Made by a program: the position numbers and the translations under genes. From Lobosporangium transversale (lineage: Eukaryota), in NCBI RefSeq assembly GCF_002105155.1, contig NW_019028996.1, forward strand, positions 372,001 through 436,000: DNA of 64,000 bases, read 5' to 3'. Positions 19,141-61,680 of this stretch are shown here, piece after piece (positions within the stretch are counted from its first letter, which is position 1; every line of letters starts with the position of its first letter). A model generated the notes under the pieces. That model searched no databases, had not been told where the DNA came from, and was given only the letters and a program-made list of their open reading frames with translations.

Positions 19141-19409
19141 CCATATTCGGATGAATTGCAACTGAGGTGAATATTTAGCATTTACATGAATAGGTAAGAT
19201 GAAAATAAAGTGAATACATGGAGCAATATAGAGAGCTGTAATAAAGCGCTTTATGTTTAATAGATTGCAAAGAGTTTATATATCTGTATGGGTACTGTTT
19301 CTGAGAAATATGTACGCCTTGTTGAGGCTCAGTGGAGGTTAATTGCACATACTTTCAAAAACCACCATGCCGCGCACGGACCACGGGACGACTTTCCAAT
19401 TCTTTTATG

Positions 19410-19489
19410 GAGATGAAATCCAAAGTCGTCCCCGGTTAAATAGTCTCGGCTCACGCTATTTAACCGAGGGCGACTTTGGATATCATCTC
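19410..19489. repeat. 80-bp palindromic (foldback/MITE-like) element
   Basis: 34-bp inverted repeats 19410-19443 and 19456-19489 with 3 mismatches, 12-nt loop; no clear TSD. Confidence 0.8.
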
Positions 19490-19509
19490 AAAAAAAAATT
19501 AATTTAGTG

Positions 19510-21406: not shown

Positions 21407-22220
21407 TCCCACCTTTCTACAACGAATGCTATTTCTGCATCTATTAGAGTTGTCAGCTTGTTACACCTTTTAATACGGCAGTGCAGCGATTAACCATAGC
21501 ATGAAAACCTACTATCTAAATACCGGTACAGCTCTGTAAGTGTACTGTCGTATAAAACACGTACTCCTAGATATTTAAGAATAAAGCCCACTATACTCCA
21601 GCCAGAAGACATGTCTCGAGAACCAGGCTATATTGTAGCACAGATGCTGAGCACGGCATCAACTATAACTGCCTTCTCATGATTGGGGACTTAGAGAAAA
21701 CCTGGATTCGAAGAATATACACCACCACATTATGGCGGGCTACTACATCTGCAAAGTTGTTCACAGCTATCTGTATCATCAAAGGAGGCCTTTGTATCTT
21801 CAGTTAATCGATTAAAAAGAAGTATACCCCTGAATGGTGCTGGAATGAGTACGTACAGATGTTGAGGATGTTACCAATACTGCTAATAGTTGTACCTGTG
21901 ATATGGAGACAAATTCTGGGGAAGGAGACCAGAGGGTCAAGCCTGTCGCTCTTTTTGGTTAGACCTTTTCAAATTGAAAAGGGCTAACCATAATGAACGA
22001 CAGCAGCAATAAAATAATTTTCGCTTTCATAGAGTCTTCACGTGATGTAAGCGTGACGTATCCTTCTGCCCCTCGCTCGTGGTGAGCAAGTGACATTCAT
22101 TACCTCCCCTTTTTTACTACAATTCCATCTTGTTAACCTGCATTTATCATTACACATCAACATATTTTATACATAATCCCTCTCACTCTCTTTTGCTTAT
22201 CTGTTAGAATATAAAACTAT

Positions 22221-35687: not shown

Positions 35688-35881
35688 GATGATGATGAAG
35701 CGGATGCTTGATCAAGCTAGCAAGTTGAGATGCTTTATTTGCAGCTGAGCAGAACTGTCCAACCATTCCATGTAACTACTGAGGCTAGTCCTGCTGCTTT
35801 CAAGTGGCTGAGTCCGCACGTGCAAGAATATTTAGGAGAAATGGTTTTTTGTTTTTTGTTTTTTCAATCTCTCCTTCAACA

Positions 35882-37452
35882 ATGTCGAATTTCAAGGAAC
35901 AACCAAACGTATTGATTCCCGAACAGGAGTCGAAATCGCTTCCTCCACTGACACAAACAACAGAACAGGAATCAAGTGAGGAGCCTTTTGTATTTGTTAC
36001 TCGCAAAAAAAAGGGCTGCAAACAGAGGAAGTCTTTTTCGAGTCCTAGCTCCCTATCTCAACCTTCTCTATTTCGAACGCCATTTGATAACGATATTAAT
36101 GAAAGTACAAGAGAGAGCAGCAACATGCCTGGATGGCGTGGGAAAAAGCCACCGACGATCAAGAAGAACAGTCAGCGATCTAGGATAGCGGGATTTCGAG
36201 GAATGGAATCTGAAAGGACTATCGACTGGGGTCTTACCATGATGGAGAGTAGGATTACAACATTAAAGCAGTCTAGATTCTATCAGGCATTTCAAGGTAG
36301 CAAAAACTTGTACCATTTTCTAATCTTTTTTCAATCCTCTTTCCCCCTATGTTGCGCTCAACTGTGATTAATACCAATATTATCCACGCTTTTATTCCAC
36401 TGACATTATCAGAATTGGTGGAATTGACGCTCATTCCCTCGTGCAGAAAACAGAGGCGTAAGTCGGCCAGTGATGAGCCATGGGATCGCCCATTGGCAAC
36501 GCAAATAGCAAATGAGGAGCATATTAATTCAAAGAACCACTGCAAGACTGTATCAGACAACGAAAACGATGAGTCATTGTCGATGGACTACTTCGGAGAA
36601 GCACAAGGAACGGGCATAAACCCTATGGACAGCCAGATTCAAAATAATTCAATCCTAGAGATGGTTTTTTACGGCATTGGATCAATTGAGAACTCGCGAA
36701 ACTCTCAGTTTCAGTTGGCCTTGGGAATTTGCTTGAAAGAGATATTACAGGTAACGGAACAAATTTGCTATTAGCTCAAGATATAAACAAGTCCCCTCAA
36801 TAGCCTGTACAGATATAGGGGCGTTGATTCTTTGCAACAATAGCGGTATTGACAATGATAAACATTGATCATTAGGTCACAGGAGCGATATCAATATTCG
36901 ATCCAATTATGACAGAGTACGACAAGGAACTTGTCGAAAAATTGGGACTACAGGTATTGAAGGTGAATGATCAGGCCAAGAAAGTGATCAAAACAAGGAC
37001 GCTTTTATATATGCCTCACTGTCCCAAAGGACTATACTCCCACGTCCTGGAATCCAACTGGGAACGGGAACGACTGAACAATATGGTAATCCTTGGCAAT
37101 CGGTTCACTATGTATGATGAAAGGTAGGAGCGTCCAATCACTGTTTCCTTTATATATTAATCATGATGTTTACTATGTTTATTTGGGCGACGTACCAATG
37201 GTAAGGAATGGTATCTCATGCCTGTGCTATACTTTTTTTTTTTTTGGTTTTAGTCCATCATTCAAGCAATTAGCCAAACAAGCGCCATTTATTTTACCAG
37301 CGCTCTCGATTGCACAGATATCACCCTTTCCTGACGTCAAGTTTGAAGATAATACGATATTTAACGATCTAGCCTTCCATATTTTCCCCACTAGCGAGAC
37401 TGTTCCTGAAGTAAGCCTTTTAGATCAGGAGCCTGATCCAGAAATTTTGTAA
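35882..37452 (+). CDS. SRR1-domain protein (SRRD/Ber1-like), multi-exon
   Basis: MVFYGIGS...SQFQLAL, SIFDPIM, TLLYMPHCPKGLYSHVLESNW, GNRF, FNDLAFH. Confidence 0.88.
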
Positions 37453-37588: not shown

Positions 37589-38230
37589 TTAAAAGTAGTC
37601 GGGACTTTTTTTGATAGACTTGTTCTTTTTTGTCTTCGTCCTCCGAATTTGATCCTGCTCATCAAGCTTTTGTTCCATAGCATGCTTCCATTGTTGGCTG
37701 TCCACTTGCCAGGTAACCGGGTTTGCTCTTCGACTTCGGTCACTTGTCTTAAAGTTGAGATTATGCTTGAATCGGAAGTGCTCCTCATTATCATTGTTCA
37801 TCTCAAGAAGCTCCTCGTAATCATTATCACTGTCGCTGTCATCATCGCTGCTGATTCCGACAGTACTGCTTTCGCCCTCACTGCTGCCGCCATCCTCAAG
37901 GCTGCTTCTTATCCTTCGGCGATACTCCATTTTAGCATAGATCTGTTGCCTTTCTTCGAGTGAAAATGAGCCTTGCTTGGATTTCTTAATTAGATAATTC
38001 CGTGTGGCACGATCTTTATTTTTTTGAGAAAGGCCCGAGAAGCGGTGCATTCTTCTTGAACGATTCATTTCCTTGAATGCTTCGGGATCTGAGAAGTGGA
38101 AAAGGTCGACAGAGGATATGACTTCGTAGTCTTGAAGTACAGAGTAATAGAGGTTGTCTTCGTAATTGTATGAAGGTGAAGTGGGGTAAAAGAAACTGCA
38201 CTGAGAAGCGGTAGCACTCAAGATTGTCAT
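37589..38230 (-). CDS. Hypothetical 213-aa protein with acidic/Ser-rich and basic segments
   Basis: Open ORF with ATG; TATAAATA on the minus strand at 38391-38398; no family recognised. Confidence 0.55.
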   Translation of the reverse strand: MTILSATASQCSFFYPTSPSYNYEDNLYYSVLQDYEVISSVDLFHFSDPEAFKEMNRSRRMHRFSGLSQKNKDRATRNYLIKKSKQGSFSLEERQQIYAKMEYRRRIRSSLEDGGSSEGESSTVGISSDDDSDSDNDYEELLEMNNDNEEHFRFKHNLNFKTSDRSRRANPVTWQVDSQQWKHAMEQKLDEQDQIRRTKTKKNKSIKKSPDYF

Positions 38231-38500
38231 GTAGGATAAGAGCTGGGTTTGTTGCTTTTTAGTGGGTTTGAGAGAGGAGATTGTGGAGGAAGTGTGTTGT
38301 TGTTGAATCGGATTGAGAGAAATGATGAGGATAATTGTCCTTGTTGTCTTGTACTTGTTGGGTGTTGGAGATTGGATGGATATGAGTGAGTATTTATACT
38401 ACTTTTAATGGACAGTGCGCAATCCGCAATTAGTTTTAGTCGCATAAACTTATTACTTACTCAATTGGACGAGCCAATCATTTAAATAAACCTTAATTTC

Positions 38501-38660
38501 CCGCAGCACTGCGGTTTCTATGCTAGTGGTCCAGATTACCCAACCGCAGTCACACAGGCCATTGTGTTTCCCCGTCATGGGAACGTGGTTTTTAAACACA
38601 CGAAAATTGAGTAAGAGAACTTAGATCCGCTTCATCACCGCACTTCGCCCGTTTAAATGA
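38501..38660 (-). ncRNA. Candidate omegaRNA scaffold (hairpin array) immediately 3' of the Fanzor-like ORF
   Basis: Four consecutive stems: 38508-38516/38542-38550 (9 bp), 38552-38556/38563-38567, 38568-38572/38579-38583, 38584-38602; position matches where TnpB/Fanzor guide RNAs are encoded. Confidence 0.5.
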
Positions 38661-38665
38661 TCCCT

Positions 38666-41270
38666 TTACCGCATTGGAGCCAGCAACCTATCTTTAACGT
38701 CCGATGTTGTTGCTGCTGCTGATGCGATATTAGAGTCTGCAGTCGTGGATACCTTTGACCAAATATATTGTCCTGCCTCGTCAACAGGCTGGAGATACTG
38801 AGGCTGTTCCTGCTGCATGATATAGCTGCGAACAACATTTACGATGTTGTGGGCTCCGAGGACGTCATGGTGCACATGAGCCTTGCAGTAAGCGCAAAAC
38901 AGATAGCAGGACGACACTGCCTACGAAGTTGTGACATGCAGGACACCTCTTGTTCGTATAGTATTCGTTGACATTGAATACAAAATAGTCAAGAGATCGA
39001 GCTTTGCTCACGGAAAACGAGATGAATCTTGTGTGAAGAGATGACAGCTTGTTGTTGGTGGGAAACCTATCAAGGCTTATGGCAATTACCAGCATGCTCT
39101 AAGGGTCTCATTGATGCCCAATGACTCCACCGCTGTTCAGAGCAGCAGATCACAGATTATACCATATTCACCTTTCATGCCCTTATCGGCATCCAACCGT
39201 GCTTTTTGTAGGCACTACTGTTTCCTCCGCAAAAGTTCGTCAAATCATGCTCAAAGTTCTGCTTCAATGCCGACTATCCGCATAAAGGAGACAGCTCAGT
39301 CTCAATGGCATTGATCGTTTTTACTGTGCCGTCGGCGACCATGTCTTTGGAAGCACTAAGTCATCTCTGAAACTTAAAGTGAGGCTGGTTGACTGCTCCC
39401 TCCTCTGTGATCAGATTTCGGAAAGTCAAACATTATCCGTGTTCACCCTCTGGAATATGTGCGTTTGCCTCGGCCAACATTTGCCGGTAGCCTAGCTTTA
39501 ATGGACTCAGGGGGGTTCATTGACAGCCAGATACTAGACACACCATTCTAGGAGCGTGTAGTTGGATGATTGTTTCGAGCAAGCTTCAGTAGGTATTCTC
39601 GAGCCGTGATGCTATTTCACATGACTCGAACCAGCTGATACTCAGTTAGTGAAATAAAAGGAACTTTCCTCATAGCTATGGGCACTGTTTCCCTCTTGTT
39701 TCCGCTCGAGCGGTTGTGGACTAAGAAATTTCCCACGACGGATAGATTATCATCAATGGGATGTCGGGACTATCGGGAAAATCACGTCTTGAAAAATAAT
39801 ATCGACGAAGTCCCGATTTTAACTGTGATGCTGTTGAAAGTAGAAATGCGGTTCCTGAGTATCGTGACCTAGTTCTCAAATGCTCTCTGTCTGTTTCCCT
39901 CAGAAGATTTGTCTTTCAATCGTTTGATGAGATACAGGGCATCGGCTCCTCTGCCCACCATGGTTGCGAGATTTCCTGAGTATAGGAATCTCAGCAGACT
40001 TATTAGAAACCGTTTTGTGTGGATGTCATGCTGGTATTACTCTCGTCTCCCTTGTGCTGATCACCCCTTACTACTGGGTTATCGTCTTGTGCGGCTCGAT
40101 CGTGTGTGGAGGCCCTTTTGTAGATCATATCAAAAAAATGCCCTGCCAGAATCACTGATTGCGATTGTGCCGGTTTTCTCAATAAAGAATCCGATTAGGA
40201 ATTAGTACTTTCTTTTCGTATCCGCGGAGGCGCTGCTGACTTCTTTAGGATAGTTTGGACTCCTTTGAGCAGCTTTCCATCGCCTATAGAGTAGTCACTC
40301 CCGGAGGACCTCCTAATGTTTGCATCCAATGTCCCGACATCCATAGTTACGACCTGATGCTCTTTGGTCGGGCTACGGGGAGCGGACGCTTTGCTGAACT
40401 GGTCACGTCTACAGGGCGGTAATTGCGGTGAAGGCCTCAGTCGTAGGGACGGAGTTACTGCTTCAGGAACATCAATCTTTTGTGCTTTGTACGGCTAGTA
40501 CTTACACAGCTTGAAAGCTACAGAAACCTCATGTTGCTTCTTAAGCGAGCGTTCTCTATAGCTGTACCGAGATGGTTTTTTGACAATGCTGCTGGAGACT
40601 CTACTGCGAACGGCGATGCAGTGGATGGTCTGGGCGTCTATGTTGCAGGGCCAAGGACTAGGATGGTTGTTACTGGGCCGTACAAACATTGCCCAGCATA
40701 TCCTATCTGTCTTCAGACCTTTTCGATGTTGGCATAGGTGAGAGCGTCACTGTCGGGGTGAGGGCTACGTCGTCAGGACCGCAATCGCGTGTAACCTGAA
40801 CGTCCGTTTCTACTTCTTCAAGCACTTCAGTCCACCTTTGTTGCCGTAGATATCCCACCAGCGAGATGTGTGCTTGAAGAGAAAAGTGAAACGTCTTTTC
40901 TATGCTTTTTCTCGCTGTAACGTGCTGCTGTCCTGTTCTCGGCCGCAGTTGAGCAGCACAGCCCTGGAAGACATCCAGAGCGCAACGCAGTAGCGGCTTA
41001 CTATCTCTTGACTCTTTGTGCTGCAGAGTCGCGTGTTTCTCTAACACATCGACGCCGTCAGGGAAAGTCCTTCAAGACAATTAAGTGAAGTCTCTTGTCA
41101 ACGATCCCATTGACGATGTCGGTGGATGCCGTGCTTATTCGTCGGTATAAAGGGTGGATGCATGCTTGCAGACCAGCCCAAATTTTGCCAGAAGGATGAG
41201 ATAACATGGATGAGTATATTCTCGAAGGGTTGTACCCTTTCTTCCGCACCATTGGCCAGGACGTAGATGC
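38666..41270 (-). mobile_element. Decayed Fanzor (eukaryotic TnpB-like RuvC nuclease) gene with an N-terminal FEN1/XPG-like PIN domain
   Basis: C-terminal KARSLDYFVFNVNEYYTNKRCPACHNFV...CAYCKAHVHHDVLGAHNI (RuvC-II E, two CxxC, RuvC-III D-x4-5-N); N-terminal DG.DVLEKHAT..., EVETDVQV, DSDALTY; many stops and frameshifts. Confidence 0.8.
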
Positions 41271-61110: not shown

Positions 61111-61402
61111 CTTCAGTCCAAGGTGTCCGTAATTAGATCATCAACTAGTACAGCATTATGAAAAGTGGAAAAAGAGGGTTTTTAGGACAAATTACATGCT
61201 AGCTATAGAGAAGGCCTCACGCTATTTGAGCATGACTTCTACAACCAACTGACAGCAATGAGTACCAGGCTGCATATGAGAAGCTCTCCAGCATCAAAGT
61301 CAAACTAAACCATGGTTGAGGTTTACTAGGGCTACAGGAGGCATTTTTATCTGCAGCTATTGTGCAGCCCAACATATTAGATACCGCAGATGAGACCATG
61401 AC

Positions 61403-61500
61403 CAGTGCTCCTATTCGAACTGAAATTTTGTCAATTATGATGTTTCAGATTAAAAAAATAAATATCAATTGACAAAATTTCAGTTCGAATAGGAGCACTG
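61403..61500. mobile_element. 98-bp hAT-type MITE
   Basis: Perfect 34-bp TIRs CAGTGCTCCTATTCGAACTGAAATTTTGTCAATT (61403-61436, 61467-61500); perfect 8-bp TSD ACCATGAC (61395-61402, 61501-61508). Confidence 0.92.
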
Positions 61501-61503
61501 ACC

Positions 61504-61680
61504 ATGACAGAGACAATGCACGAAGGGTACGAGGTTGCTAGAATATTAGACCGCCATGAAGATGACAATGACATGGAGTTTTTGGTTCAATGGAAAGGCT
61601 TTGAGGTTTCTGAGGCAACATGGGCAACTCTGCACCATTTCAACTACAAACAGTGCGTCCAAGACCAAAATCAACTTCTA
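61504..61680 (+). pseudogene. Chromodomain-coding fragment
   Basis: YEVARILDRH...EFLVQWKGFEVSEATW matches the chromodomain pattern YxVExI...Y/FLVKWKGY..E.TW. Confidence 0.8.

Follow-up and report, generated by a model that had tools for sequence, protein, structure and literature searches.

A probable fossil of a Fanzor1 element end and its omegaRNA scaffold in Lobosporangium transversale

Introduction

For the Fanzor1 nucleases SpuFz1 and PpFz1, an omegaRNA made up of a first stem-loop (SL1) and one further stem has been described (PMC11423790). Fanzor1 is further marked by a TDG motif in the WED domain and by an RNA that terminates in a stem and not in a pseudoknot (PMC10711439). Here we compare with these systems a locus in a 64,000-nucleotide stretch of Lobosporangium transversale DNA (the window), in which a sequence-only reading had proposed an omegaRNA at 38490-38665, built as a GC-rich array of four hairpins directly after the stop codon of a Fanzor gene. 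We consider it probable that this stretch is what decay has left of the 3' end and omegaRNA scaffold of a Mortierellaceae-type Fanzor1 copy, one that is dead and likely non-working. The sequence-only reading thus survives in part: the Fanzor open reading frame, the family RNA, the boundary and SL1 were all found, and it is the four-hairpin scaffold, the better preservation of the stems and the activity in trans that found no support.

Results

A broken Fanzor gene in the window

The identification of the open reading frame as a Fanzor relative is borne out by Pfam, by profile matches and by matches to related sequences. Collinear remnants of the element, without exception on the minus strand, span 41258-38627 (Table 1). 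The remnant of the last exon matches the Pfam family Cas12f1-like_TNB too weakly to reach the cut-off (E 1.8e-4); its reading frame shifts near 38905 and is interrupted by a premature stop at 38666-38668. An internal gap of ~135 codons near 39430-39460 removes the TDG and RuvC-I DLG motifs, and by tblastn residues 119-253 of the protein P0006 are without a match in this copy. Ten stops were counted in 733 aligned codons, together with about nine frame switches, and RuvC-I is absent; with these stops and switches, and with the RuvC-I region gone, the window copy holds no open reading frame carrying all three catalytic residues.

Relatives match in frame as far as 38627, beyond the stop taken in the sequence-only reading, and the ancestral stop was therefore probably the next in-frame TAA, at 38621-38623. 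From these alignments, 38624-38665 is probably former coding sequence, and the placement of the hairpins directly after the Fanzor stop has to be amended to this extent. An intron at the 39002/39003 junction, present in 39 relative loci, is precisely absent from the window copy, for which reason a retrocopy origin was considered; the missing intron may reflect either a loss at the level of the lineage or a retrocopy, the other junctions lying in deletions.

Word-based protein searches with two pieces of the open reading frame returned no match, PDB sequence searches with pieces of the window gave chance matches only, and no match to the element was found in the viral contigs searched. A blastn comparison of the element with the window revealed no second copy; tblastn located, at 21717-21863 on the plus strand, a short second piece of this exon type, the last of the Fanzor gene, in a more decayed state. 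The DNA downstream of this fragment is unlike 38490-38665 (score 43.5 vs 50.7 in shuffles) and fits neither of the RNA models. A GTGACGTA motif lies at about 22054, upstream of a gene near this fragment, whose product we take, from its translation, to be V-ATPase subunit G.

Table 1. Features of the window copy and its surroundings, and guide-RNA variants of relatives
Feature	Location	Strand	Basis or remark
Host gene, 213 aa, no Pfam match	37589..38230	-	Start codon side lies 268 nt beyond the predicted end
Flank predicted to supply the guide, given an end at 38499	38484..38498	-	AT-rich; promoter of the 37589-38230 gene
Terminal long hairpin, likely remnant	38499..38559	-	Sense-strand folds
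ACACA/TGTGT stem (second stem of the sequence-only reading)	38552..38567	.	Antisense fold only; no counterpart in relatives
Linker, 24 nt, with short TTCCC/GGGAA hairpin (third stem)	38560..38583	-	
SL1 homolog (fourth stem)	38584..38601	-	3' arm missing one base, loop altered
Last Fanzor exon remnant: RuvC-II E, zinc finger, RuvC-III D, tail	38621..39002	-	tblastn of relatives
WED/RuvC exon remnant, with stops and frameshifts	39003..39757	-	Profile match probability 97.7
Middle-exon remnant	39796..40581	-	tblastn matches to relatives
N-terminal XPG/FEN1-type nuclease remnant	40650..41258	-	tblastn matches to relatives' first exon
Long RNA variants with predicted spliceosomal introns in the scaffold	L002, L006, L017, L047, L067, L070, L076		

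Stems, folds and base composition of the flagged stretch

All of the listed stem arms, and the third CCGCAG copy, are in place. A motif look-up finds the arms ACTGCGGTT at 38508 and AACCGCAGT at 38542; ACACA lies at 38552 and TGTGT at 38563, TTCCC at 38568 and GGGAA at 38579, CGTG at 38584 and CACG at 38599, and the third CCGCAG copy at 38501. Folding of the 176 nt of 38490-38665 gave a z-score of -1.60 for the minus (sense) strand, with 15 of 200 shuffles equal or better, and +0.02 for the plus strand. Only the 9-bp stem is somewhat uncommon, being seen in 23 of 2000 shuffles and 9 of 363 window tiles. Stems of 5 bp are unremarkable, since 311 of 2000 shuffles have as many. The four back-to-back stems occur together in the plus-strand fold only, and ACACA/TGTGT is absent from the sense fold because its 3' arm pairs with the third CCGCAG copy. 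The original observation is therefore partly confirmed: the stems are present, and the fold is barely better than shuffles. An Rfam scan returned three weak snoRNA matches, all far under their gathering scores.

The description of the stretch as GC-rich within AT-rich DNA fits the downstream flank, which has a GC content of 38%, and fails upstream, where the 47.7% of 38490-38665 equals the 47.6% of the element body. The GC level of the element body persists to about 38500 and drops beyond.

Protein architecture of the relatives

A HMMER search with one frame of the broken open reading frame returned 10 proteins at E<=0.001, nine of them relatives, and seven of these nine are named as Mortierella, Linnemannia or Gamsiella proteins; judged by these relatives of the element, and not by host genes, the host is likely a member of the Mortierellaceae. 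With a degenerate pattern made from the C-terminal motif, 83 metagenome loci were collected, comprising 58 relatives and 25 unrelated loci (L026 was added by eye). Intact relatives are multi-exon genes, in which an N-terminal XPG/FEN1-type nuclease is followed by a middle region, a WED/RuvC exon and a last exon.

The N-terminal domain matches Rad2, XPG and FEN1 by profile at E-values of 6e-10, 1e-9 and 4e-7, respectively, the profile matches of this kind ranging from 6e-10 to 1e-6. Eight acidic residues at the catalytic positions of the family are invariant in eight of eight relatives, the positions being mapped to FEN1 numbering. This acidic catalytic set is found in the relatives together with the helix-turn-helix NDY motif, as in members of the XPG/FEN1 superfamily, and Pfam XPG_I was matched, too weakly to reach the cut-off (E 0.007), in one of the two first exons scanned.

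The WED/RuvC exon carries TDG and DLG motifs, the former in all eight loci examined. RuvC-I reads D-L-G in the RuvC exons examined, and D-A-G in P0012, so that the DPG signature given for this site (PMC10711439) is replaced by D-L-G in the relatives. In the last exons, E13, C20, C23, C37, C40, R46 and D47 are invariant in 30 of 30, which places the alternative glutamate of Fanzors about six residues before a C4 zinc finger and RD after it. The best PDB match of the relatives is the mimivirus Fanzor2 9b0l (E 6e-6), and they match Pfam Cas12f1-like_TNB at E 1.6e-13; a profile of the RuvC exon found no solved Fanzor by sequence. Structure models were poor (mean pLDDT 34.6 and 49.8), Foldseek gave no match at E<=0.001 with them, and its top rows were Cas12f and SpuFz at E 0.5-1.1.

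In a splice test on eight loci, removal of GT-AG introns from L005 left a single open frame, of about 1,224 residues; four to five loci were without the anchor motif, and L037 and L076 had breaks. The NCBI gene model P0012, of 1,132 residues, holds both the XPG-type and the Fanzor parts. The Atlas cluster closest to it comprises 58 eukaryotic proteins with a length of about 1,312 residues. Intact relatives are therefore predicted, with good likelihood, to encode an XPG/FEN1-type nuclease and a Fanzor in one spliced open reading frame of ~1,200 residues. The known transposon superfamilies that carry Fanzors (Mariner, MuDR, hAT, Helitron, Crypton, IS607) are marked by a transposase gene, terminal repeats or a target duplication. 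No transposase was seen in the 4 kb examined of relative loci, and no terminal inverted repeat was found in the relatives, whose loci cover no more than about 230 nt ahead of the start codon.

Guide RNAs of the relatives

The 3' ends of the relatives share a layout of SL1 (6-7 bp), an unpaired linker of 11-12 nt and one long hairpin, the first G of which pairs with the last C of the element, so that the hairpin closes at a sharp element end. The sharp conservation boundary foreseen for the 3' flanks of family copies is indeed there: the sister copies L001, L018, L032 and L055 are identical up to that last C and then diverge, and the pairs L014/L059 and L026/L046 also diverge at the predicted element end. 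Covariation exceeds both kinds of control, with 45 cells changed on both sides vs 20.5 in shuffles and 14-21 in slid controls, and for SL1 alone 20 vs 5.4 in shuffles and 0-3 in slid controls; the sequences are related to one another, and the structure was drawn from the same alignment, which biases the controls towards it. In 10 of 11 short relatives, pairing between the final base and the one 11-12 nt past SL1 has P 0.75-0.97, and these RNAs accordingly have the terminal stem of Fanzor1. Halves of the long hairpin bind their cognate partners with a mean of -29.0 kcal/mol vs -17.6 for non-cognate ones, the cognate half being the best partner in 11 of 19.

A family model, built from 21 non-redundant RNAs that form part of the 58 relatives tested, recovers 48 of the 58 (the 21 training RNAs included) and none of the 25 unrelated loci. 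Among the 10 relatives missed, six have little or no DNA past the stop; L045, L078, L082 and L083 are true misses. L078 and L083 form a subfamily that the family model matches poorly in the 3' region. The 3' ends of the relatives thus carry what is expected of an omegaRNA, a conserved structured RNA with a sharp boundary, and its scaffold lengths run from about 40 nt (predicted spliced) to 110 nt. The family layout is that of a fungal Fanzor1: it has two hairpins (three in one relative, L045), and the notion of a four-hairpin scaffold is abandoned.

At a distance of ~25-35 nt from the element end, 25 of 29 relatives retain a TGACGT-type motif, which occurs in duplicate in L006, L017 and L053. 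The motif resembles either a CRE/ATF site or a signal for the DNA end.

Intron-like inserts in some guide RNAs

Seven long RNA variants (Table 1), which represent about three lineages (L002/L017/L047, L006 and L067/L070/L076), all have GTAAG or GTATG 12-20 nt past SL1, and YAG at a distance of either 25-27 or 2 nt from the end. Among 23 other relatives, one has such a donor there. The inserts, at 81-104 nt, are within the size range of the coding introns (74-105, median 86, in 39 loci including sister copies). Unspliced, the long variants form the terminal pair with P<=0.02; with the insert removed, P rises to 0.67-0.97 in six of seven (0.10 in L047). In these six, excision beats all but 1-46 of 740 alternatives, some slides of the same length being as good, and L076 and L067/L070 complete different helices across the splice junction. 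Some guide RNAs of the relatives are therefore predicted, from these folds and splice motifs, to need splicing.

The guide-RNA remnant of the window copy

An SL1 homolog sits at the expected place in the window copy. With an SL1 model built without the window sequence, 38584-38601 is the best local match (8.6 bits, E 0.08 in 381 nt), and it starts 19 nt past the probable ancestral stop, the median of 30 relatives being 28; across the whole window, it is absent among the 13 matches of this model at E<=10. The linker is as long, at 24 nt, as that of L045, which also has an internal hairpin, counted from its predicted fold. L045 is the nearest relative of the window copy by blastn and its RNA layout is alike, and a tree groups the window copy, weakly (26/82 support), with the atypical L045/L067/L070/L076. 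Beyond the linker, the long hairpin at 38499-38559 has a 9-bp core (the first stem of the sequence-only reading, with arms 38508-38516 and 38542-38550) and a base made with the third CCGCAG copy, in which 7 of 10 basal pairs are possible; it is without the closing G-C pair and without the TGACGT motif of the family. A descriptor of SL1 plus long hairpin, with thresholds chosen after the window had been seen, finds seven sites in 128,000 window positions, the strongest being 38499-38601, right after the stop and on the coding strand. On these grounds, 38499-38601 is likely homologous to the family RNA in both SL1 and the long hairpin.

Could the stems be chance folds in a degraded element or in host intergenic DNA, with the true end elsewhere or deleted? 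The fold z-score of only -1.6, the negative family-model and Rfam results and the six other descriptor sites in the window would all be compatible with this. Position, strand, stop spacing and SL1 sequence nevertheless agree with the relatives, and GC stays at the level of the element body as far as about 38500 before it drops; we therefore regard such an origin as improbable.

The preservation of this RNA was judged against simulated decay. The full family RNA model gives at most 2.2 bits locally on this copy, which is absent among the 12 matches of that model at E<=10 over the window, and a sequence profile of the family RNA has no match in its region. Left-out relatives mutated in silico by 10/15/20% kept a median of 27/18/11 bits and lost the profile match in 1/6/22% of 126 trials each. 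In view of this tolerance, the RNA is either at least as decayed as the open reading frame or belongs to a divergent subfamily, and the claim that the stems are better preserved than the gene is not supported.

As to the element end, we lean towards a position of about 38499, inferred from a rule of the family (CT + 6 nt = end), and this falls inside the boundary of 38.49-38.50 kb that had been predicted. A terminal weight matrix scores -4.1 bits at 38499 vs 5.1 at 38410, an alternative end, and an end near 38514 follows from the best of 35 pairwise matches, that to L019 (z 3.4). With an end at 38499, RNA of this copy would have drawn its guide from promoter DNA, at a distance of 268 nt from the start of the 37589-38230 gene.

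There is a further reading, in which SL1 alone belongs to the element scaffold, the ancestor was of the intron type of L067/L070/L076, and the first two stems of the sequence-only reading are intron. SL1 and the linker would then be followed by a 3-bp hairpin (GGG-GAAA-C, 38573-38566) completed by two post-intron bases. The SL1 model does place the family GGG at 38573-38571, in register with L067 and L070, the tree weakly groups the window with the L067/L070/L076 types, and the last bases of the window copy resemble their acceptor context. However, the donor would need four of six bases changed, and the acceptor AG and final two bases are missing, which is far beyond a decay of 10-20%; the intron would measure 65 nt vs 81-104 nt in the seven variants, and the 9-bp stem would have to be a coincidence (about 1-2.5%). 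We therefore think this ancestry unlikely, and keep to a remnant of SL1 and a terminal long hairpin.

Sequencing runs and sister copies

Run X5 behaves as RNA, with three GT-AG joints in an SRR1-domain gene. Its contigs cover positions up to 38375 and 38641-38942 and skip 38376-38640, a gap that carries no weight either way. Another X5 contig matches 40758-40885 with many differences, and a sister copy is therefore present in this run. In the DNA run X1, a sister copy aligns on 38741-38857 and 39003-39048, and at 80% nothing further aligns on 38490-38665, which again carries no weight either way. Since the X1 sister copy matches 40365-40571 and 38741-39048 on opposite strands, an inversion and a deletion are placed there, and the window copy is the collinear one. 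In runs X6 and X7 the differences are almost only C>T and G>A, as from bisulfite libraries, and these runs could serve to read the methylation of the element.

Sister copies matter for the suggestion that the RNA could still act in trans, being made here and serving an intact sister Fanzor, like the ghost omegaRNAs of Spizellomyces. Those RNAs work (PMC10432273), and other copies exist in the genome, as the divergent X5 contig at 40758-40885 attests. Against this, SL1, which is conserved in all three Fz1 structures, has lost a base here, the closing G-C pair is gone, and the region is no better kept than the dead open reading frame. With SL1 damaged and the family model unmatched, activity in trans is unsupported, and we hold it to be very improbable. 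As neither a protein nor a sound scaffold is left, the copy is judged dead, its loss of function being deduced from this damage.

Two near-perfect palindromes, at 61397-61506 and 19398-19500, have arms of about 40 bp and folding energies of -63 and -52 kcal/mol. Part of the 61397 arm recurs in run X1, where it makes up a loose end of the sister Fanzor copy, and this palindrome may accordingly be a small mobile repeat.

Insertion sites and neighbouring genes

C exceeds G in the first 150 nt of 25 of 26 flanks (the window included) vs 208 of 426 window tiles, and the 3' flanks of 26 element ends contain several apparent gene starts within 50-400 nt, one flank beginning a peroxiredoxin gene. Pfam recognised two of 18 flank open reading frames, and a promoter preference therefore rests on the base skew, which suggests oriented insertion upstream of host genes.

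The X5 contig covering the 37589-38230 gene ends at 38375. The same contig holds the SRR1-domain gene, at 35804-37452 on the plus strand with three GT-AG introns, which is convergent with the 37589-38230 gene; this suggests that the two genes have overlapping 3' ends.

Discussion

In an active ancestor, the RNA would begin with SL1 and continue past the element end into neighbouring DNA. The RuvC/zinc-finger surface would hold SL1, the last pair of the long hairpin would coincide with the end of the element, and the ~15 nt of host DNA that follow would form the guide, aiming the nuclease at the empty insertion site as for other Fanzor1s. By analogy with the systems treated in PMC10432273, PMC10711439 and PMC13565253, the protein would cut the empty site, by which the element would be restored or would spread. 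For the XPG/FEN1-type domain, the most plausible role would be to trim flaps or resect ends during copying.

More speculatively, and as a possibility that we would not yet call probable, the family may be a multi-copy element of Mortierellaceae in which one gene joins an XPG/FEN1-type 5'-flap nuclease to a Fanzor1, combining RNA-guided cutting with end trimming for copying and dispensing with a classical transposase. It would land just upstream of host genes, and in several lineages the spliceosome would finish the guide RNA, removing the DNA end motif; the window would hold a fossil of it.

Full-text literature searches returned no paper pairing Fanzor with Mortierella, XPG or Mucoromycota, and matches for TnpB with FEN1 were unrelated, judged by title. 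Searches for Fanzor with splicing terms gave no intron in a Fanzor RNA at the level of titles and abstract openings. XPG is absent from the main text of PMC10432273 and PMC10530073, and FEN1 from that of PMC10432273 and PMC13565253; the proteins themselves may be in supplementary hit tables or in Repbase. The XPG/FEN1-type fusion and the intron-like guide-RNA inserts, both of them predictions, were thus not found in these searches.

As a fossil, the flagged hairpins have little use of their own; the interest lies in the family, a variant of Fanzor1 worth following via its intact members. An apparently intact second nuclease domain bears on what Fanzors do for elements without a recognised transposase. 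The scaffolds form a well-defined natural series, between about 40 nt (as predicted after splicing) and 110 nt in length, which would be useful for compact editors, and splicing-dependent guide RNAs, if true, would tie nuclease activity to the spliceosome.

The closest known systems are SpuFz1 of Spizellomyces punctatus and PpFz1 of Parasitella parasitica, which likewise have an RNA past the stop with a first stem of ~7 bp, one further stem and a variable flank (PMC11423790, PMC10432273). The alternative RuvC-II glutamate just before the zinc finger is shared with these systems, as is the TDG in WED, a Fanzor1 trait (PMC10711439). Unlike most Fz1 proteins, of 600-700 residues, the relatives reach about 1,200 and have the N-terminal XPG/FEN1-type domain; unlike known Fanzor1, their RuvC-I reads DLG and not DPG, some of their RNAs have intron-like inserts, and the window copy is dead. 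In having a scaffold without a working nuclease gene beside it, this copy resembles the ghost Spu-1 elements (PMC10432273); those differ in being numerous, with well-conserved ends and RNAs that work, whereas here the element is near full length but decayed, and its scaffold is damaged. Bacterial IStrons also let splicing and guide-RNA function share the element end (PMC10690162); here, by contrast, a short GT-AG intron is predicted inside the scaffold, and splicing would make, not destroy, the guide RNA. Finally, the N-terminal domain is like the XPG/Rad2/FEN1 5' structure-specific nucleases (PDB 4q0r, 6tux, 5zod) in its profile match (E 6e-10) and its acidic residues (invariant in 8/8), and unlike them it belongs to a mobile multi-copy element, where it stands ahead of an RNA-guided nuclease.
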